IMG/VR virus record: IMGVR_UViG_3300044620_001904
Span: 1-64,000 of that record
DNA length: 64,000 bases
Direction: 5' to 3' (one strand)
Source: a virus
Positions 54,912-62,050 of this stretch are shown in pieces. Positions within the stretch are counted from its first letter, which is position 1, and each line of letters begins with the position of its first letter. Made by a program: the position numbers and the translations under genes. The notes beneath the pieces are model-generated. The model worked only from the letters and a program-made list of their open reading frames with translations. It had not been told where the DNA came from and ran no database searches.

Positions 54912-54937
54912 ATTACAAAGATAGTAAAAAAATGATG

Positions 54938-55022
54938 CGGAGAACAGAGGAATCGAACCTCACACAAAATTTGTGCGTCATTCTTAGCAGGAAGGCCCCA
55001 TCGCCATCAGGGATTATTCTCC
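54938..55022 (-). tRNA. tRNA-Ser(GCU)
   Basis: GGAGAAU/GUUCUCC-G acceptor, loop CU-GCU-AA, long variable arm. Confidence 0.85.
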
Positions 55023-55028
55023 GTATTG

Positions 55029-55101
55029 TTGTTTAGGAGGGAATCGAACCCCCACCTTAGCGTCCGTTGCGCTAAATTCTAATCCATTAAACTACTAAAC
55101 A
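55029..55101 (-). tRNA. tRNA-Arg(ACG) with A33
   Basis: UAGCG-CA-ACG-GA-CGCUA. Confidence 0.75.
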
Positions 55102-55391
55102 ATAAATCCAACAATTTGGTTTTTTTCACTTTTATATTGTGTTAAAAGCATAAGTTCGGTAACTTCATCTTTAGTGCAGTATCCTTGAACATCTTCTTGC
55201 CAACTTGTCCAAACTTCAAAAGTGGTTTCACCATCACCATAAAGACCAGTTCCTCCTCCAACGACAGATATTGCATGGCCATTTGGAAATTCCATAACCG
55301 CATGAATGGCTCCCACATTAAAATAGTTACGATGCGGTTTGAAAACCAAATCATCAAATGTTTTTACTTTATATTTTTCAAAAAAATCCAT
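55095..55391 (-). CDS. Hypothetical protein within the tRNA array
   Basis: 98-aa ORF with FPNGHAISVV...YGDGETTFEV. Confidence 0.6.
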   Translation of the reverse strand: MDFFEKYKVKTFDDLVFKPHRNYFNVGAIHAVMEFPNGHAISVVGGGTGLYGDGETTFEVWTSWQEDVQGYCTKDEVTELMLLTQYKSEKNQIVGFIV

Positions 55392-55424
55392 AATATATTT
55401 TTTTAAATTGTTGGTATAATTTTG

Positions 55425-55507
55425 TGAGTAAGGTAGGATTCGAACCTACACGAATTTCTCCACCGGCTTCTAAGGACGGCGCGTTCTACCAGTTTCGCCA
55501 CTTACTC
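55425..55507 (-). tRNA. tRNA-Leu(UAG)
   Basis: Leu-type D arm; loop CU-UAG-AA. Confidence 0.85.
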
Positions 55508-55514
55508 AATTTTT

Positions 55515-55590
55515 GGGTGTTGTATGGGATTTGAGCCCATGACCTTCTGAACCACAATCAGACGTTCTCACCAACTGAACTAACAACACC
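55515..55590 (-). tRNA. tRNA-His(GUG)
   Basis: UCUGA-UU-GUG-GU-UCAGA; G-1 present. Confidence 0.85.
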
Positions 55591-55595
55591 ATATT

Positions 55596-55683
55596 TGGCG
55601 GAAAAGAGAGGTGTCGATCCCCACACCACGAAGGTGCCACTAGTTTTCAAGACTAGGTTTAGCGCCGGCTAAATTTCTCTTCC
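55596..55683 (-). tRNA. tRNA-Ser(UGA)
   Basis: CUAGU-CU-UGA-AA-ACUAG; long variable arm; GCCA end encoded. Confidence 0.85.
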
Positions 55684-55691
55684 ATTTGTTG

Positions 55692-55764
55692 TGGAACAGA
55701 AAAGAATCGAACTTTTATTGCTCGCTCTTCATGCGAGTGCCTTGACCAACTAGGCTACTGTTCC
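55692..55764 (-). tRNA. tRNA-Phe(GAA)
   Basis: CUCGC-AU-GAA-GA-GCGAG. Confidence 0.8.
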
Positions 55765-55797
55765 ATATATTTTACAAATATACAAAAAATATTTCGT

Positions 55798-55869
55798 ACC
55801 GCCAACAAGAATCGAACTTGTAATTAAACCTTATGAGAGTTCCGTGATAAACCGTTTCACTATGGCGGC
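55798..55869 (-). tRNA. tRNA-Met(CAU)
   Basis: Loop CU-CAU-AA; full cloverleaf. Confidence 0.8.
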
Positions 55870-55875
55870 ATTTAG

Positions 55876-55947
55876 AGCACCATGAGAATTTTGAAATCTC
55901 GACTTCTAGTTTGGAAGACTAGCGCTCTGCCTCTGAGCTAATGATGC
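55876..55947 (-). tRNA. tRNA-Gly(UCC)
   Basis: CUAGU-CU-UCC-AA-ACUAG; U73. Confidence 0.85.
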
Positions 55948-55954
55948 TTTTATG

Positions 55955-56038
55955 TTACCGGGGTAGGGTTCGAACCTACACAGGGATTTCTCCCAACAGA
56001 TCCAAAATCTGCTCGCTTGCCAATTTGCATACCCGGCA
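55955..56038 (-). tRNA. tRNA-Gln(UUG) with long variable arm
   Basis: GCAGA-UU-UUG-GA-UCUGU; variable arm GGGA-GAAA-UCCC; U1-A72. Confidence 0.75.
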
Positions 56039-56181
56039 ATTTTGATGAGTCACGGACTTGTGTACCGTATGTCCCCCTTTAAATTATTCACTAACCCAGG
56101 GTGTGGGGAAACTCATCATAATAACCCCCTTGATCGGATTAACGGACCGACTGCCATATCGGAAGTGGGGGTTAGACTCCG

Positions 56182-56268
56182 TAGTCCTGGTCGGATTCGA
56201 ACCGACACGGGCTTCTCAGCCCAACAGATTTTAAGTCTGTCGCGTCCTACCAATTTCGCCACAGGACC
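56182..56268 (-). tRNA. tRNA-Leu(UAA)
   Basis: ACAGA-CU-UAA-AA-UCUGU; long variable arm. Confidence 0.9.
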
Positions 56269-56273
56269 ATATA

Positions 56274-56461
56274 AAACACCCTAATTTATCCAACTTACAG
56301 GTGTTGCGGTTGTCCTCATTTCTGAGTTAGGAATAGTCATTTGTCCTTACGAGGTCGAGTTGACTTGCTCTGAAGTTATCCCCCTCCACTCCAATGTAGG
56401 TTCCCATACGGCGATCAAACCGTTTTTCATCGTATTGGGCGTACTATCCGTTGTCGTGTTT
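56274..56461 (-). ncRNA. Unknown ~188-nt structured RNA
   Basis: GC-elevated, closed by AAACAC/GUGUUU, internal hairpins. Confidence 0.45.
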
Positions 56462-56470
56462 CGGAACGTG

Positions 56471-56576
56471 TAGTCAGGACAGGATTCGAACCTGTATGGG
56501 TTTTTGAGACATCACTTCCTCTCGGTGTTCCACCCAGTTTATTTCAACTTGCGTCTACCAATTCCGCCACCTGACT
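56471..56576 (-). ncRNA. tRNA-like element A (AGUCAGG acceptor, no canonical anticodon arm)
   Basis: AGUCAGG-UGGCGGAAUUGGUAGACGC-[variable]-UACAGGUUCGAAUCCUGU-CCUGACU-A. Confidence 0.7.
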
Positions 56577-56581
56577 ATTCG

Positions 56582-56725
56582 TTATTTCATTTTTTGTACT
56601 TCTTCAATTAACTCAATAAACATTGATTTTGTTATATGTTCCTGCTTTACCCACATATAAATTACCCCCATTCTTTCGTGGTAATCTTTTTTAACTTGTA
56701 ATTTTTCAATCAAATCTTTTATCAT
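56582..56725 (-). CDS. 47-aa hypothetical protein between tRNA-like elements A and B
   Basis: Probable start MIKDLIEKLQ; the longer ORF call runs into element B. Confidence 0.45.
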   Translation of the reverse strand: MIKDLIEKLQVKKDYHERMGVIYMWVKQEHITKSMFIELIEEVQKMK

Positions 56726-56744
56726 AACCTCGTATTTTATTTTG

Positions 56745-56858
56745 TAGTCAGGACAGGATTCGAACCTGTAATGATATGCCCCGCACATATCTGGATGGTC
56801 TAGAATTAGTTGTATAATTCGGAATTCACCACAATGTTACCAATTACACCACCTGACT
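56745..56858 (-). ncRNA. tRNA-like element B
   Basis: Acceptor and T arm identical to A; unrelated middle region with two hairpins. Confidence 0.7.
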
Positions 56859-56860
56859 AT

Positions 56861-56940
56861 TTGAGGATGAGAAGTCCTCTGTGTTGTAAGTTTTAGAACC
56901 AAAGGAACCGCACTCATCCATCCTTTCTCAAGGGAACAAC
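56861..56940 (-). ncRNA. Small RNA with loop-loop (kissing) pseudoknot
   Basis: UCC[CUUGAGAAA]GGA and GAGGA[CUUCUCA]UCCUC have complementary loops UGAGAA/UUCUCA; GUUGU/ACAAC stem. Confidence 0.5.
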
Positions 56941-56947
56941 AAATTAG

Positions 56948-57021
56948 TAGTCAGGATTGGACTCGAACCTGTTTTTCCTCCTTCCCTTTGTCGGAAGTTG
57001 TGCTCCTTACACCACCTGACT
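56948..57021 (-). ncRNA. tRNA-like element C
   Basis: Same AGUCAGG/CCUGACU-A acceptor; CUUCC-GACAAAG-GGAAG arm; imperfect T stem. Confidence 0.6.
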
Positions 57022-57023
57022 AT

Positions 57024-57234
57024 TCACCCCACCTTGAGATTTGAGGTGAGTAGTTATTTCGGTTTTCTATTTCTTAAAAACCTGCGGGGCGTCCCCCATT
57101 AAAACAGCCAACACTACTGGGAGAGATTGTGTCAGTCCCTTTATCCCACGATGTCCCACTCTAGCCGTAGACATTCTGCTAGTCCATTGTTAAATGAGTC
57201 TTGGACAAAAGACTGCTGAGTATCTCTTACTCAT
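57024..57234 (-). ncRNA. Unknown ~210-nt structured RNA
   Basis: UGAGUA-AGAGA-UACUCA hairpin; AGUCUU-UUGUCC-AAGACU with GUCCA/UGGAC pseudoknot potential; further stems. Confidence 0.45.
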
Positions 57235-57236
57235 TG

Positions 57237-57324
57237 TGGGTAGGGAGGGACTCGAACCCCCGATGTTGTGTCTAAAGACCTTTGATTTACAGTCAAAGCC
57301 GTTCGCCGCTACGGTAACCTACCC
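57237..57324 (-). tRNA. tRNA-Tyr(GUA)
   Basis: UUUGA-CU-GUA-AA-UCAAA; long variable arm. Confidence 0.88.
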
Positions 57325-57332
57325 GACGATAA

Positions 57333-57429
57333 AATAGGAAAATAGAAGATGGGCGCGTGGACATCTATTTTTATGATTAGCATTACTATAAACACCTCCA
57401 CCAAAATGGTATTCCCTAATCAACCTATT
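57333..57429 (-). ncRNA. Unknown ~97-nt stem-closed RNA
   Basis: AAUAGG/CCUAUU closing stem, UGAUUAG/CUAAUCA, AGAUG/CAUCU, GUGGA/UCCAC loop complementarity. Confidence 0.4.
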
Positions 57430-57430
57430 G

Positions 57431-57504
57431 TACCCCCTCTAAGAATCGAACTTAGGACATATTGCTTGTAAAACAATCACTCTTAACCACTGAGTTAAGG
57501 GGGT
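57431..57504 (-). tRNA. tRNA-Val(UAC)
   Basis: AUUGU-UU-UAC-AA-GCAAU. Confidence 0.85.
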
Positions 57505-57510
57505 GTATTG

Positions 57511-57583
57511 CGTACCTCCAAGGATTCGAACCCTGAACAAACGGGTTGGAACCGTTTATGATAAACCATTTCACCAGAGATAC
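57511..57583 (-). tRNA. tRNA-Trp(CCA)
   Basis: AACGG-UU-CCA-AC-CCGUU. Confidence 0.85.
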
Positions 57584-57589
57584 GTATTG

Positions 57590-57662
57590 AGAGCAGTGAG
57601 GGATTCAAACCCCCGTGTTTCTCCTTTGCAGGGAGTTGCCTAATCGCTCGAGCCAACTGCTC
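57590..57662 (-). tRNA. tRNA-Cys(GCA)
   Basis: Loop CU-GCA-AA; U73. Confidence 0.85.
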
Positions 57663-57667
57663 TTATG

Positions 57668-57742
57668 TCTTCAGGGGCGGGCTCGAACCGCCGACCTCTT
57701 GGATATCAGCCAAGGATTCTAAACCAACTGAACTACCTGAAG
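57668..57742 (-). tRNA. tRNA-Ile(GAU)
   Basis: CUUGG-CU-GAU-AU-CCAAG. Confidence 0.88.
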
Positions 57743-57748
57743 ATTATG

Positions 57749-57822
57749 TAGTGAGGATGGGACTTGAACCCATGACTGCATGTGTATAAGACATGTATTC
57801 TAACCAACTGAATTACCTCACT
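57749..57822 (-). tRNA. tRNA-Ile(UAU)
   Basis: CAUGU-CU-UAU-AC-ACAUG. Confidence 0.82.
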
Positions 57823-57831
57823 ATAATTAAG

Positions 57832-57905
57832 TGATTCCGGTGGGATTCAAACCCACGTTTACCATTTTAAAAGAATGGTGCCTACAATCACTCGGCCACG
57901 AAATC
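57832..57905 (-). tRNA. tRNA-Lys(UUU)
   Basis: CCAUU-CU-UUU-AA-AAUGG. Confidence 0.82.
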
Positions 57906-58003
57906 ATTTTTTATACCAACAATGTCAAAGAACCTTGTTCTAATCTTTCACAAAGGTAAATCAAATTTTTTAATCCAACAAATCTATGTGAAAGATTTTT
58001 TTG

Positions 58004-58085
58004 AGGAAAGGGTGGGAATCGAACCCACGTTGAGAATTAACTCGCAGATTAACAGTCTGCTGCCTGGCCTCTAGGCTACCAATCC
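58004..58085 (-). tRNA. tRNA-Asn(GUU), atypical body
   Basis: GCAGA-CU-GUU-AA-UCUGC; long variable arm; two U-U mismatches in the acceptor; U73. Confidence 0.7.
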
Positions 58086-58101
58086 ATTTTATATTGTATT
58101 A

Positions 58102-58650
58102 CTAAGTGTTTTTTTTCAAAAAATTGTCCCTAAACATATCAACAATTCCAATAATTTCATTTTTGAATTTTGAATGTATATATAGATGATGTGTTGGACA
58201 CAAAGGAATCAAATTTTCCGGTGAGTTATTTTTTTTATTACAATCATAATGGTGGATTGCCACTATTTTAGATTCACCACATACCACGCATCGTTTTTGG
58301 TGATGTTCAAAACCTATTCTACGGTATCCATTTCTTTCTCTATTTTCAACAGAACCGACCCAATTAGGGTTATTAGGACCACTTCTGAAAAAACTATTTG
58401 AGCAAGAATAAGAACAAGTTGTTTTTTCATGTTTATGATTTGTAATAGTAACGAACACATTACCACAAATTGGACATTTTTTTTCCAAGTAATCGTATTT
58501 AGTTTTTTTCTTTTTCAAATGTGAAATATCTACACTATGAAGTTCTATAAACTCAAAAAATTTTTTTCTAGTTTTACCATTATCATAACCATAAATTGAT
58601 TTTATTGCGTCAGTAATAGTTTGAGAATTTTTTATTATTTCTGTTTCCAT
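58102..58650 (-). CDS. HNH homing endonuclease inserted in the tRNA operon
   Basis: CPICG...CSYSC; CVVCG...HHYD.NKKNN.PENLIPLCPTHH. Confidence 0.85.
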   Translation of the reverse strand: METEIIKNSQTITDAIKSIYGYDNGKTRKKFFEFIELHSVDISHLKKKKTKYDYLEKKCPICGNVFVTITNHKHEKTTCSYSCSNSFFRSGPNNPNWVGSVENRERNGYRRIGFEHHQKRCVVCGESKIVAIHHYDCNKKNNSPENLIPLCPTHHLYIHSKFKNEIIGIVDMFRDNFLKKNT

Positions 58651-58712
58651 ACATATAAATATGTTAGAAATCGTAAAAAACTAATTTGGTCAAACTTTTT
58701 CAATACGACAAG

Positions 58713-58785
58713 TAGAGTAGACAGGACTCGAACCTGCACGCACTTGCTCCCAAAGCAAGGGACCTTCCAATTGGTCAACTACTCT
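58713..58785 (-). tRNA. tRNA-Pro(UGG)
   Basis: CUUGC-UU-UGG-GA-GCAAG. Confidence 0.87.
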
Positions 58786-58841
58786 ATATGAAAAACATAA
58801 TTTTGTAATTACAACACTTAATAACCAATATTTCAAAGAAC

Positions 58842-58879
58842 AAAAAAAAACCCCGAACTTTTTACGGTTCAGGGTTTTT
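58842..58879 (-). terminator. Attenuator terminator of tRNA operon 1
   Basis: AAAAACCCUGAAC-CGUAAAAA-GUUCGGGG-U9; the CUGAACC in its 5' arm is complementary to GGUUCAG in the leader ORF. Confidence 0.85.
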
Positions 58880-58899
58880 ATATGATAATTTTAACTATA

Positions 58900-59004
58900 T
58901 CAACTTTTAACTACTGAACCAATGAATGTACGAAACATCCCAGGATACCAACAATTACCTTGTGGTTTCGAACTAATGACGTTATGTAAATTTATTGTTT
59001 TCAT
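58900..59004 (-). CDS. Leader peptide 1 (34 aa) of the tRNA operon attenuator
   Basis: MKTINLHNVISSKPQGNCWYPGMFRTFIGSVVKS*; promoter TACTTTTG at 59025-59032. Confidence 0.8.
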   Translation of the reverse strand: MKTINLHNVISSKPQGNCWYPGMFRTFIGSVVKS

Positions 59005-59419
59005 AGTTTGTTATATAAGTATTACAAAAGTAGTAAAAATATCAATACAAGTCAAATATTTTTTTCACCACCTAAAATAAATTGTTGCTATTCCTATCGC
59101 AAATGTTAAGACTCTACGTTTTTCAGGATGATAAGGAGTTTTTTGATATGAAATACCAATATCAAACCACCATTCGCCATCAAAATTGTTCCAAACAAAT
59201 TCTGTTTTCATGTCTTATCGTTTAATTTTAAAACATTAAAGTTCTAACCAAGTATCCAATTAATTCATTAAGTAATGCAAAAAAACCAACTATGGATCCA
59301 ATTCCAAATACCGACATCAATATAAATTGTGTCATAATTGCAAAAGTTGATGGTTCCCTTTTGAATTGGTTTTTCTTGTAAAATTTTGAAAAAAAAGATG
59401 TTTGCATATGGTTTTATTT

Positions 59420-59632
59420 TTAGATTTCGCTCAAATATGATTTCAGGTTAGCAAGTTCAATTTTTAATCTTACGATTTCATCGTTTTGCAATTTTATATC
59501 TTCCAGTCTTTCCTTTAAAACCTCAAAAGAATAATCGATAATTTGTTGTTCAATTTCGGTCAAATCTTCTTTTTTTACAAGAATTTTCTCCAAAATAAAC
59601 TCACAATATTTGTCTTTTTGAGATTTAAACAT
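59420..59632 (-). CDS. Hypothetical protein
   Basis: ORF after a TATCTTTG promoter. Confidence 0.5.
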   Translation of the reverse strand: MFKSQKDKYCEFILEKILVKKEDLTEIEQQIIDYSFEVLKERLEDIKLQNDEIVRLKIELANLKSYLSEI

Positions 59633-59685
59633 TTTGTTTTTTGTTGGGCAAAGATATAACTTTTATCTATCTCTGCCAAATTTTT

Positions 59686-59919
59686 TTAAAAAATCGTGTG
59701 ATCCCCAAAGTTATCGTCCCAAGGACAAGGGATGGACTTTCTATCATCATCACGAGTTGGTTGGATGATATCAGAAATTTCAGATAATATCTGTAAAGCA
59801 TCCGTTTGAGCATTATCAGATTGGAAGATAGTTTCAGCATAAGGATATTTTTTGAAATAATCATCAAGAACATTGATAACTTCAGATTTTTTTTCGGGTG
59901 TCCAATTTATTTTATACAT
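59686..59919 (-). CDS. Hypothetical protein
   Basis: ORF downstream of tRNA-Thr. Confidence 0.5.
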   Translation of the reverse strand: MYKINWTPEKKSEVINVLDDYFKKYPYAETIFQSDNAQTDALQILSEISDIIQPTRDDDRKSIPCPWDDNFGDHTIF

Positions 59920-59933
59920 ATTCTATTTTTGTG

Positions 59934-60019
59934 AGCCAAGGGCCGGATTCGAACCGGCGTGTGAGTAAACTCATCCTCATTACAAGTGAGGTGCAATCGA
60001 CCATCTATGCGACCTAGGC
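59934..60019 (-). tRNA. tRNA-Thr(UGU) with long variable arm
   Basis: CCUCA-CU-UGU-AA-UGAGG; variable arm UGAG-UUUA-CUCA. Confidence 0.82.
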
Positions 60020-60026
60020 AAATTGT

Positions 60027-60102
60027 TGGTGACCCTGGCACGATTCGAACGTGCGACTGATTGCTTAGAAGGCAATTACTCTATCCTCTGAGTTACAGGG
60101 CC
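60027..60102 (-). tRNA. tRNA-Arg(UCU)
   Basis: AUUGC-CU-UCU-AA-GCAAU; ACCA end encoded. Confidence 0.92.
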
Positions 60103-60108
60103 TTATAA

Positions 60109-60285
60109 TTATATTTTCTTCACTTCATATCTATGACCACTGTCAGAATTTATCTCCATTAATTTTCTTGTGTTTTCTGCGTCTTCAAAAGTTTCAAACT
60201 CTAATACTTCCTCATGAGTGTCCAATATAATTACCGGCATCTCTACATTTCTGTCATTTTTTACAAATTTTACAATTACATACAT
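60109..60285 (-). CDS. 58-aa hypothetical protein (not in the ORF track)
   Basis: MYVIVKFVKNDRNVEMPVIILD...SDSGHRYEVKKI*. Confidence 0.55.
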   Translation of the reverse strand: MYVIVKFVKNDRNVEMPVIILDTHEEVLEFETFEDAENTRKLMEINSDSGHRYEVKKI

Positions 60286-60302
60286 AATAATTAGTTTTTT
60301 TT

Positions 60303-60377
60303 TGGCGGTCTATAAGGGAATCGAACCCTTACCATATCATAGACAGTGATATATCCTTGCCGTTAGACGAATAGACC
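60303..60377 (-). tRNA. tRNA-Asp(GUC)
   Basis: UAUCA-CU-GUC-UA-UGAUA (U37); GCCA end encoded. Confidence 0.88.
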
Positions 60378-60437
60378 AATTTTGTTTTACAAAGGTAGTA
60401 TAAACTTTTCAATTATACAACACATTTATTTTTTTTG

Positions 60438-60513
60438 TGGAGAAGATGGGAATCGAACCCACCACAAAAACATTGCAAGTGTTTCTCGCCAAAGCCTTGG
60501 TACATGCTCCCCC
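60438..60513 (-). tRNA. tRNA-Ala(UGC)
   Basis: AAACA-CU-UGC-AA-UGUUU; G3:U70. Confidence 0.85.
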
Positions 60514-60524
60514 AAATTATTTTG

Positions 60525-60610
60525 TAGTGCCGATGGGATTCGAACCCACGATTATCCTTTCGGATTCCAGATTGAAAGTCTGGTAGCCTAAACCACTAGC
60601 CGACGGCACC
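60525..60610 (-). tRNA. tRNA-Glu(UUC) with long variable arm
   Basis: CCAGA-CU-UUC-AA-UCUGG; variable arm AUCC-GAAA-GGAU. Confidence 0.82.
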
Positions 60611-60654
60611 ATTTATGATACAAAATTACAAAATATATTTCAAAGAACCAAAAA

Positions 60655-60683
60655 TAAAAAACCCACCTTTTTGGGGTGGGTTT
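60655..60683 (-). terminator. Attenuator terminator of tRNA operon 2
   Basis: AAACCCACC-CCAAAAA-GGUGGGUUUUUU; its CACCCC is complementary to GGGGUG in the leader ORF. Confidence 0.85.
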
Positions 60684-60706
60684 CAATATTTTAGAAAACT
60701 ACAATA

Positions 60707-60784
60707 TTATACCACACCCCGTAGAGTAAGTTCTGCTTCCGTTCTATCGGCAGTGGTGATATATATGTAGTTCAAATTTTTCAT
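60707..60784 (-). CDS. Leader peptide 2 (25 aa) of the tRNA operon attenuator
   Basis: MKNLNYIYITTADRTEAELTLRGVV*; promoter TATCTTTG at 60789-60796, 4 nt before the ATG. Confidence 0.82.
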   Translation of the reverse strand: MKNLNYIYITTADRTEAELTLRGVV

Positions 60785-60830
60785 AACACAAAGATACAAA
60801 GAATTTTTATAAAATCAATACCCTTATCCT

Positions 60831-61352: not shown

Positions 61353-61549
61353 ATCTATAAATATTTGATTATTTTTAATATTTACATTTTTAAAAAAATA
61401 TTTATTCTTCTAAATTTTTAATTTCTTTACATTAAAATTACATTAATTTAAAACTAAAAAAAAGTTATTTGATATTTATTATAGTGACTTTAATTTTTTT
61501 TTATTGAAAATTTTATTATATTTGTATCTAATTTGTAATGATTATTAAC

Positions 61550-62050
61550 ATGGAAAGAGTTTTAGTTTTAAATTCTGATTATAGTCCTTTGAACGTAACG
61601 ACTGTCATTCGTGGTTTTAACTTAGTTAATAAAGGAAAGGCCGAGATATTAAAATCGGGCGAAAAACCGATAAGTGCTGGTTCATTATCATTTGCTCGCC
61701 CTTTGATAATAAGACTATTGGTTTATGTTAAATACAGGGTTAAAAACTTAAAAGTTAATAGGGCTAGAATTTATAAACGTGATGGTCATAAATGTGTATA
61801 TTGTGGGGCGAATAAAAATCTTACAATAGACCACGTTTTACCAAAATCTCGTGGTGGAACAAATAGATGGACTAATTTGGTTACATGCTGCGGTACTTGT
61901 AATAGAAAAAAAGGTGATAGAACTCCATATGAAGCAAATATGACTTTAAGTGTAAAACCTTATGAACCATCATTGTTTTCTGATGTATTTCATAATCACA
62001 TAAGTGATCTGTGGGATGAATTCAAACAAACGATGGGGTTGAATTATTGA
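61550..62050 (+). CDS. HNH endonuclease (McrA-like)
   Basis: VLVLNSDYSPL; RDGHKCVYCG...TIDHVLPKSRGG...WTNLVTCC..CN..K. Confidence 0.9.
   Translation: MERVLVLNSDYSPLNVTTVIRGFNLVNKGKAEILKSGEKPISAGSLSFARPLIIRLLVYVKYRVKNLKVNRARIYKRDGHKCVYCGANKNLTIDHVLPKSRGGTNRWTNLVTCCGTCNRKKGDRTPYEANMTLSVKPYEPSLFSDVFHNHISDLWDEFKQTMGLNY

Follow-up and report, generated by a model that had tools for sequence, protein, structure and literature searches.

The tRNA region of the phage genome

The stretch of DNA analysed here (the window) comprises positions 1 to 64,000 of the IMG/VR virus record IMGVR_UViG_3300044620_001904, which are the first 64 kb of a 95,261-bp single-contig phage genome of 31% G+C. All tRNA genes in the window lie on the minus strand between 54937 and 60610, 25 in total once a tRNA-Ser(UGA) detected with ARAGORN at a lower threshold and with Rfam is added. 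They are arranged in two blocks which open in the same order: a Bacteroidota-type promoter, a short open reading frame (ORF) starting with ATG, an intrinsic terminator, a GTTCTTTGAAATAT motif and then the tRNAs. The initial annotation had proposed this common layout, and each element was located on the minus strand at the positions below. The two short ORFs, termed leader 1 and leader 2 after the tRNA blocks that they precede, and the terminators that follow them are the subject of this analysis. The features of block 2 and block 1, in the direction of transcription, were as follows.

60789-60818, minus strand: leader 2 promoter, with TTG, a 19-nt spacer and the −7 box TATCTTTG (60796-60789), located by motif scan and putatively assigned from the Bacteroidota −33/−7 consensus
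60707-60784, minus strand: leader ORF 2, 25 codons and TAA
60749-60766, minus strand: attenuator 2 segment 1 (codons 7-12), predicted with ViennaRNA to pair with segment 2 in the minimum-energy fold
60710-60721, minus strand: attenuator 2 segment 2, the antiterminator strand CGGGGTGTGGTA, ending at the stop codon and forming a predicted duplex with the terminator 5′ arm
60649-60684, minus strand: attenuator 2 intrinsic terminator, segments 3 and 4 (stem 60684-60658) with T tail, −14.0 kcal/mol
60635-60648, minus strand: boxA 2, GTTCTTTGAAATAT, a putative antitermination site of the rRNA-operon type
60621-60652, minus strand: putative promoter P2, with TTTG (60652-60649), a 20-nt spacer containing boxA, and TAATTTTG (60628-60621)
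59933-60610, minus strand: tRNA block 2, Glu-UUC, Ala-UGC, Asp-GUC, an ORF, Arg-UCU and Thr-UGU
60285-60109, minus strand: the 58-codon ORF within block 2, between Asp-GUC and Arg-UCU
59025-59056, minus strand: leader 1 promoter, with TTTG, a 20-nt spacer and TACTTTTG (−7 box 59032-59025)
58900-59004, minus strand: leader ORF 1, 34 codons and TGA, with homologues in alignment A1 (below)
59003-58985, minus strand: attenuator 1 segment 1, pairing with segment 2
58948-58965, minus strand: leader 1 apical hairpin CCACAA..TTGTTGG, codons 14-19, from the predicted fold
58908-58922, minus strand: attenuator 1 segment 2, core GGTTCAG, ending 5 nt before the stop codon, with segment 1 or the terminator 5′ arm as partner
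58842-58879, minus strand: attenuator 1 intrinsic terminator (stem 58879-58846) with T tail, −15.5 kcal/mol
58825-58841, minus strand: boxA 1, GTTCTTTGAAATATTGG
54937-58785, minus strand: tRNA block 1, 20 tRNAs from Pro-UGG to Ser-GCU
55679-55596, minus strand: class-II tRNA-Ser(UGA) in block 1, from ARAGORN at a lower threshold and the Rfam class-II (tRNA-Sec) model at 44 bits

The −7 box ends 20 nt ahead of the ATG in leader 1 and only 4 nt ahead of it in leader 2, and the leader 2 mRNA may for this reason be leaderless. The distance from stop codon to terminator stem was 22 nt for leader 2 and 21 nt for leader 1, within the 20-25 nt given previously. Block 2 begins with tRNA-Glu at 60610, 10 nt after the −7 box of P2, and block 1 with tRNA-Pro at 58785. 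The tRNA-Ser(UGA) at 55679-55596 was not called by ARAGORN at its default setting. The phage was present in 24 DNA sequencing runs labelled as freshwater, lake-water or (eight runs) fungus metagenome; no RNA runs were listed.

Predicted structures of the leader RNAs

Both window leaders and ten relatives were folded with ViennaRNA. As full-length RNA, every leader examined folded with the 5′ codons of the ORF paired to its 3′ codons (helix 1:2) and the terminator formed (3:4). When the terminator was entered without its 3′ arm, its 5′ arm paired with the last codons of the ORF (2:3), again in every leader examined. This predicted folding pattern is that of the classical four-segment attenuator. 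Segment 2 ends 5 nt before the stop codon in leader 1 and 0 nt before it in leader 2, so that a terminating ribosome would cover it. The complementarity of the ORF 3′ end to the terminator 5′ arm, already pointed out from the sequence, was borne out by duplexes of −17.1 kcal/mol in attenuator 2 and −11.5 kcal/mol in attenuator 1. An antiterminator duplex at the 3′ end of the ORF was found in all 28 distinct leaders examined, with energies of −9 to −18.6 kcal/mol. Across 15 lineages, ORF ends paired with their own terminator arm at a mean of −13.3 kcal/mol and with the arms of others at −9.1 kcal/mol, a difference reached in 0 of 20,000 permutations.

Compensatory changes, a proposed check on the pairings, were sought in alignment A1, consisting of 14 homologues of leader 1, and were found. 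In the terminator (3:4) 98.4% of cells were paired and 3 pairs had changed on both sides; the corresponding values were 81.9% and 5 pairs for the antiterminator (2:3) and 74.6% and 4 pairs for the 1:2 helix, which was weaker than the other helices. Sliding the partner by 1-3 columns as a control lowered pairing to 23-50%. The antiterminator core varied at two positions, and all four combinations were present with matching partners: GGTTCAG/CTGAACC, GGTTCGG/CCGAACC, AGTTCAG/CTGAACT and AGTTCGG/CCGAACT. The three lineages related to leader 2 had the compensatory variants GGGGTG/CACCCC, GAGATGG/CCATCTC and GGAGAGGG/CCCTCTCC. The apical hairpin of leader 1 (helix of positions 43-48 with 57-62) was 95% paired in the 14 leaders and recurred in the middle of the homologous ORFs as CAACAA..TTGTTG; it may be a pause hairpin.

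Codon content of the leaders in the window

Leader 1 contains 17 different amino acids, with Ala, Asp and Glu all absent. It had been described as holding every amino acid served by its operon and none of these three; the coverage and the absence both stand, and the operon has 20 tRNAs rather than the 19 counted. With tRNA-Ser(UGA) present, the TCG and TCA codons of leader 1 are cognate to a tRNA of its own block. Codons 10-18 of leader 2 (60757-60731) read TTADRTEAE, the run of the five amino acids of the downstream tRNAs that had been reported. The described split of the Arg codons by isoacceptor was likewise present, with CGT in leader 1 alongside tRNA-Arg(ACG) and AGA in leader 2 alongside tRNA-Arg(UCU). 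A further correction to the first reading is that leader 2 has an additional CGG codon, which lies within the antiterminator strand.

The chance background was taken from the phage's own proteins (98 long ORFs). Among 23,887 windows of 33 residues, 103 lacked Ala, Asp and Glu, 26 held all 15 non-Met amino acids of block 1 and none did both. Of 26,239 nine-residue windows, none contained each of E, A, D, R and T and no other residue, and no 24-residue window contained a nine-residue run drawn solely from these residues. When both leaders were compared with both operon classes in a 2x2 Fisher test, the result was p = 8e-4.

Leaders and tRNA operons of other phages

Searches with blastn found no relatives of the 6.3-kb region in cultured and GenBank phages, only scattered tRNA matches. 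A 66-nt query comprising terminator and boxA had no convincing match in cultured phages, the best match being a 636-kb uncultured phage, and a search for related loci with the 173-aa upstream protein gave no match; none of these searches turned up a laboratory model phage. IMG/VR was scanned for the motif together with a T-rich left flank. Dozens of contigs were recovered with a hairpin, a T run, GTTCTTTGA(A/C)ATATTGG and then a tRNA 13-30 nt further on, and the short ORFs upstream of these hairpins were recognisably homologous to the two window leaders. Homologues of leader 2 were present in L128, L136, L174, L032, L385 and L399 (loci are given by L numbers throughout).

Leader and operon content changed together in these relatives. 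The 158-kb contig L128 shares the two-operon plan of the window, with G-G and Met codons gained in its first leader and a tRNA-Gly and three tRNA-Met gained in its first operon. The L032 group has tRNA-Leu(UAA) and lacks tRNA-Thr and tRNA-Ala, and its leader contains four TTR Leu codons and at most one Thr. In homologues of leader 1 ahead of operons that begin with tRNA-Glu, the hairpin loop contains Glu (Q-Q-E-I-C-W); ahead of operons that begin with tRNA-Pro and lack tRNA-Glu it is without Glu, and these leaders carry Y-P. Upstream of segment 2, the codons for Val, Phe and Gly and the TCN codons for Ser also track the presence of their tRNAs among these homologues.

A search blind to composition then covered 303 phage loci. 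A site had to combine an intrinsic terminator no more than 170 nt ahead of a tRNA, an ORF of 12-50 codons that starts with ATG and stops near that terminator, and pairing of the ORF with a terminator arm. The search returned 139 sites, 118 after filtering, corresponding to 78 distinct peptides in 41 families (<50% identity). Many phages had several sub-operons, each with its own leader. In one example, Pro, Asn, Asp, Gly, Thr and Ala tRNAs were preceded by a leader rich in N, T, P, G and D; in another, Leu(UAA), Arg(UCU) and Leu(UAG) were preceded by a leader rich in Leu and Arg. A leader with a Ser run, Arg and Tyr stood before Arg, Ser and Tyr tRNAs, and the leader I-E-A-I-G-Y-A-Y-E-A-G before Tyr, Glu, Ile, Gly and Ala tRNAs.

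Expected codon counts were calculated from pooled phage codon usage. Codons cognate to tRNAs of the leader's own operon numbered 781 against 609 expected (z = 11.3), or 555 against 397 (z = 12.9) upstream of segment 2. For closed operons serving <45% of codon usage, 140 cognate codons were observed and 70 expected (z = 10.5). When operons were permuted among the 40 families with a scorable sensor part, the observed value of 0.678, compared with 0.486 ± 0.018 after permutation, was reached in 0 of 100,000 trials. The match was confined to the frame of the ORF, with z = 10.9 in frame 0 and −0.6, −3.7 and −2.0 in frame +1, frame +2 and the reverse complement. Shared ancestry cannot explain it, because ancestry would carry into every frame, and a match in frame 0 alone argues that the leaders are translated, the frame having to matter biologically. 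Arg AGR and CGN codons followed the Arg isoacceptor present (p = 0.01), extending the split seen in the window to the whole data set, and Ser and Leu showed the same trend. The match was also found within genomes with two or three operons. The covariation of leader codons with operon tRNAs that the initial annotation suggested looking for in related phages is thus present over 41 families.

Several features of other leader families were recorded during this survey. Seven otherwise unrelated leaders (L038, L097, L132, L175, L312, L338 and L386) share the tail D-T-D-V-G or D-T-D-L-G, which may reflect exchange of segment-2/terminator modules between attenuators or a role at termination. L023, L024, L028, L073 and L126 share a conserved 20-nt element, TTCCTGAAGAGTTATATATAC, in the interval from leader stop to terminator; the window lacks it. 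Suppressor-like tRNAs were called at a low ARAGORN threshold, with anticodons UUA (L013, L027, L358), CUA (L345, L385) and UCA (L336); if some of those phages recode stops, table 11 may have given wrong leader ends there. In one large leader family (L032, L106, L345, L364, L379, L385 and others) a tRNA-Thr-like gene comes first after the terminator, and boxA follows only after it, ahead of tRNA-Gln.

boxA motifs and internal promoter-like sites

Exact copies of GTTCTTTGA occur three times in the whole 95-kb genome, all on the minus strand and all in the tRNA region. Two follow the attenuator terminators, and the third (boxA 3, 57933-57925) stands directly after a promoter ahead of tRNA-Lys, with neither ORF nor terminator. 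The 17-mer GTTCTTTGA(A/C)ATATTGG is common in Bacteroidota genomes, for example in Pedobacter, Mucilaginibacter, Chitinophaga and Niabella. Of 122 matches, 61 lay in the 16S-23S spacer and 2 lay 89-179 nt upstream of 16S, most of the remainder being on truncated rRNA contigs. These are the locations of boxA in rRNA (rrn) operons, and in E. coli recruitment of the rrn antitermination complex both requires boxA and needs nothing more than boxA (PMC10250234). The label "boxA-like" given to the motif was right, the same 17-mer being present in Bacteroidota rRNA operons. Because of this 17-mer, together with the TAnnTTTG promoters, the sequence points to a Bacteroidota host. The motif followed the terminator in 30 of the 41 leader families, and a −7 box lay at most 70 nt from the ATG in 26 of the 41.

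A scan for full −33/−7 sites on the minus strand of the tRNA region returned −7 boxes starting at 60796, 60628, 60397, 59656, 59032, 57958 and 55782:

60796 and 59032, minus strand: −7 boxes of leader 2 and leader 1
60628, minus strand: −7 box of P2, with the end of the T tail as −33 element and boxA in the spacer
60397-60390, minus strand: promoter-like site within block 2, ahead of tRNA-Asp
59656, minus strand: −7 box of a promoter-like site
57982-57920, minus strand: internal promoter (−7 box starting at 57958) followed by boxA 3, ahead of tRNA-Lys
55782-55775, minus strand: promoter-like site ahead of tRNA-Phe

The TTTG within boxA was considered as the −33 element of P2 and rejected at a spacing of 12 nt; the TTTG of the T tail fits at 20 nt. 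The caution raised earlier about internal TAnnTTTG-like sites is real, with full sites at 60628, 60397, 57958 and 55782. As such sites lie within the tRNA region, the attenuators are not the sole route into the arrays. Strictly dependent on read-through from leader 1 in this phage are only tRNA-Pro, an HNH ORF (58650-58102) and tRNA-Asn. In L151 and L128 the homologous leader is followed directly by a contiguous tRNA array. Over the families, 15 of 41 had a −7 box between terminator and first tRNA and 26 had none. boxA would be inside the transcript for read-through from the leader promoters and for the site at 57933, and outside it for starts at P2.

The HNH ORF at 58650-58102 (minus strand) lies in block 1 between tRNA-Pro and tRNA-Asn and has a weak HNH_3 match, below the Pfam cut-off. 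After it stand a fresh promoter and boxA, as if the operon had been split by an insertion. Contigs from related lake metagenomes join 58789 to 58842, so that the 52 nt between boxA and tRNA-Pro are gone; with this deletion tRNA-Pro comes directly after boxA, as in L151 and L128. Contigs from four runs yielded only fragmentary variants, too few for a population test: this deletion and, in leader 1, a synonymous and an Arg-to-Cys change.

Interpretation of the leaders

The two leaders are likely ribosome-dependent leader-peptide transcription attenuators, one for each tRNA block and each followed by a boxA of the type found in host rRNA operons. All of the sequence-level characters of the leader-peptide attenuator family are present. 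Host RNA polymerase would start at the −33/−7 promoter and transcribe the ORF of 25 or 34 codons. If translation ran smoothly to the stop codon, the ribosome would cover segment 2, a stretch of 12-15 nt at the end of the ORF that finishes 0-5 nt short of the stop; the 3:4 terminator would form and transcription would end. An early stall caused by a scarce aminoacyl-tRNA would leave segment 2 free to pair with the emerging 5′ arm of the terminator, giving read-through. With no ribosome on the leader, segment 2 would be held by segment 1 and transcription would again terminate. Polymerases that read through would transcribe boxA, presumably recruiting NusB/S10 and other Nus factors, and the Nus-loaded polymerase would then resist termination over the long, untranslated and highly structured tRNA array. 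Since the codons that make up each leader are those that its downstream tRNAs read, the circuit would dose each tRNA block according to how well its codons are decoded, and would shut itself off once the phage tRNAs had accumulated. Decoding could be slowed by tRNAs rare in the host, by a mismatch of codons and tRNA supply early in infection, by tRNAs cut by nucleases, by phage tRNAs not yet accumulated or by starvation, among which the circuit could not distinguish. Translation of the leader, stall-dependent read-through, loading of Nus factors and the natural trigger are what we infer from these features. Cleavage by anticodon nucleases is only one of the ways in which ribosomes might be made to stall, and simple feedback on the supply of tRNA is no less likely. 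On balance, and with less assurance than for the attenuators themselves, we think it probable that phages of Bacteroidota use a multiplexed, codon-resolved feedback in which block-specific leaders induce only those tRNAs in short supply, the rRNA boxA provides processivity, and cleavage of tRNA by defence nucleases is detected and answered, next to the RNA-repair genes, with replacement tRNAs.

Several observations weigh against an attenuator of this kind. Close leader variants had no codon-position periodicity (33, 30 and 41 variable columns), and without an excess at third positions the peptide as such is not under selection; the leader peptide itself is not conserved, which is expected of a leader peptide and leaves no independent sign of coding. 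Leader 1 has two Thr codons and no Thr tRNA in its own block. Some of its residues are set by the RNA helices, namely the Lys/Arg-Thr start, the Gln-Gln and Cys-Trp of the hairpin and the Gly-Ser-Val end, and the statement that it covers "all 16 amino acids" needs to be read in this light. Most regulatory codons are single-copy, where classical attenuators have runs, and sensitivity to a mild shortage may accordingly be low. Transcripts started at P2 would have boxA in the promoter spacer and hence untranscribed, and the internal promoter-like sites could supply most of the tRNA independently of the attenuators.

The last of these points is also the strength of another explanation, in which the hairpins insulate the promoters by stopping transcription that arrives from upstream, P2 and the internal sites drive the tRNAs, and the ORFs are chance or ordinary small genes. 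A full −33/−7 site overlaps the T tail and boxA ahead of tRNA-Glu, more sites lie inside both arrays, 15 of the 41 families have a −7 box in the corresponding position, and close variants are without codon periodicity. Set against this, such a promoter is absent from the other 26 families and from leader 1 of the window, the joint changes of ORF 3′ end and terminator 5′ arm would serve no purpose in an insulator, the match of codons to tRNAs is confined to the ORF frame, and boxA would be without a role if it were never transcribed. We consider insulation quite unlikely. Chance as an explanation was rejected.

Two further explanations keep the switch and alter what it senses. The leaders might report any loss of translation, as in host shut-off or under a ribosome-targeting defence, with their codons irrelevant; a stall at nearly any codon upstream of segment 2 could free the antiterminator, and most amino acids are single-copy. 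Such a codon-blind sensor would not face selection on its codons, and is for that reason disfavoured by leader content that tracks the operon's own tRNAs over 41 families and within genomes of two or three operons, down to isoacceptor classes and in frame 0 only; we judge it unlikely. An untranslated leader RNA that binds tRNA or another ligand directly, in the manner of a T-box or riboswitch, would account for the conserved alternative helices and the link to tRNA identity, but it is very improbable. No match to the T-box or any other Rfam family was found at E up to 0.1. The frame contains, over its length, as many as 17 different cognate codons, compared with the single specifier triplet of a T-box. 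An ATG and a frame of 12-50 codons stopping at segment 2 were present in 78 of 78 leaders, although this was a criterion of the search and not an independent finding.

Comparison with known systems

The attenuators of amino-acid operons (trpL, hisL, pheL, leuL, thrL, ilvGMEDA) have, like the candidates described here, a promoter-proximal short ORF and an intrinsic terminator before the regulated genes, four segments that pair as 1:2 and 3:4 (terminator) or as 2:3 (antiterminator), regulatory codons upstream of segment 2, and a terminating ribosome that masks segment 2. The phage leaders differ in that their targets are tRNAs rather than enzymes, so that the output would feed back on the quantity sensed. 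They also mix codons for 5 to 17 amino acids, most of which are represented once, in contrast to the runs of one to three amino acids in classical leaders; they are phage-encoded, with several differently written leaders per array, and are followed by boxA.

The E. coli pheST operon, encoding phenylalanyl-tRNA synthetase, is attenuated by the Phe-rich pheM leader. As proposed for the phage, a gene of the translation apparatus is there placed under a leader peptide that senses its own aminoacyl-tRNA supply; unlike the phage system it involves a single amino acid and a cellular protein-coding target, and no tRNA gene. In T-box riboswitches, too, the status of a tRNA sets the balance of antiterminator and terminator ahead of genes serving that tRNA, but uncharged tRNA is bound through one specifier codon and no translation takes part. 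The leaders had no T-box signature in an Rfam scan at E up to 0.1 and belonged to no Rfam family, the only match being below threshold and on the terminator.

In comparison with Nus antitermination at rrn boxA (rrnTAC) and lambda nut, the phage motif is identical to the boxA of Bacteroidota rRNA operons, and in read-through transcripts from the leader promoters it would likewise stand ahead of long untranslated structured RNA genes. The phage motif differs in lying directly after an attenuator terminator and, in some operons, inside the spacer of a second promoter. Phage T4 has a tRNA cluster and repairs PrrC-cut tRNA with Rnl1/Pnk. As in T4, the phage tRNA array adjoins RNA-ligase genes, suggesting a contest over host tRNA; we know of no report of leader-peptide control of the T4 tRNA cluster.

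In a search of open-access papers and bioRxiv, no description of leader peptides preceding tRNA genes was found, and a 2023 paper on phage tRNAs and anticodon nucleases says nothing of leaders, promoters or attenuation. The reasons for which phages carry tRNAs, and the way in which these are expressed, have been debated for decades, the main ideas being codon compensation and escape from tRNA-targeting defences. If the attenuator reading is right, the leaders would give direct genomic evidence for control of phage tRNA supply by decoding demand. Ribosome-mediated attenuation would then reach beyond amino-acid metabolism to tRNA genes, beyond cells to viruses, and from a range of one to three amino acids to one of up to 17. 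The leaders would also be a readable record of the codons that each phage treats as limiting, and the cassette of leader, attenuator and boxA could be put to use in Bacteroidota as a compact sensor for translation stress.

Neighbouring genes and minor observations

A row of genes resembling RNA-repair functions follows the tRNA array:

54911-54504, minus strand: cyclic-phosphate receiver domain (cREC_REC), directly downstream of the array
54465-53797, minus strand: metallophosphoesterase
52714-51962 and 50950-50282, minus strand: RNA ligase split by an intein
49650-48589, minus strand: Rnl1-like RNA ligase ORF

This row fits a contest over tRNA integrity without proving it. An endonuclease-like ORF (DUF7487, weak Vsr match) lies between the halves of the split RNA ligase, and a second HNH endonuclease ORF lies at 61538-62050 on the plus strand.

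Three tRNA-like elements were found in block 1 at 56471-57021 (minus strand). They have common acceptor and T arms and unrelated, enlarged middles, and their Rfam tRNA scores were 38.4, 40.9 and 27 bits. Two of the three were called as tRNAs by ARAGORN with introns allowed, with inserts of 21 and 29 nt.

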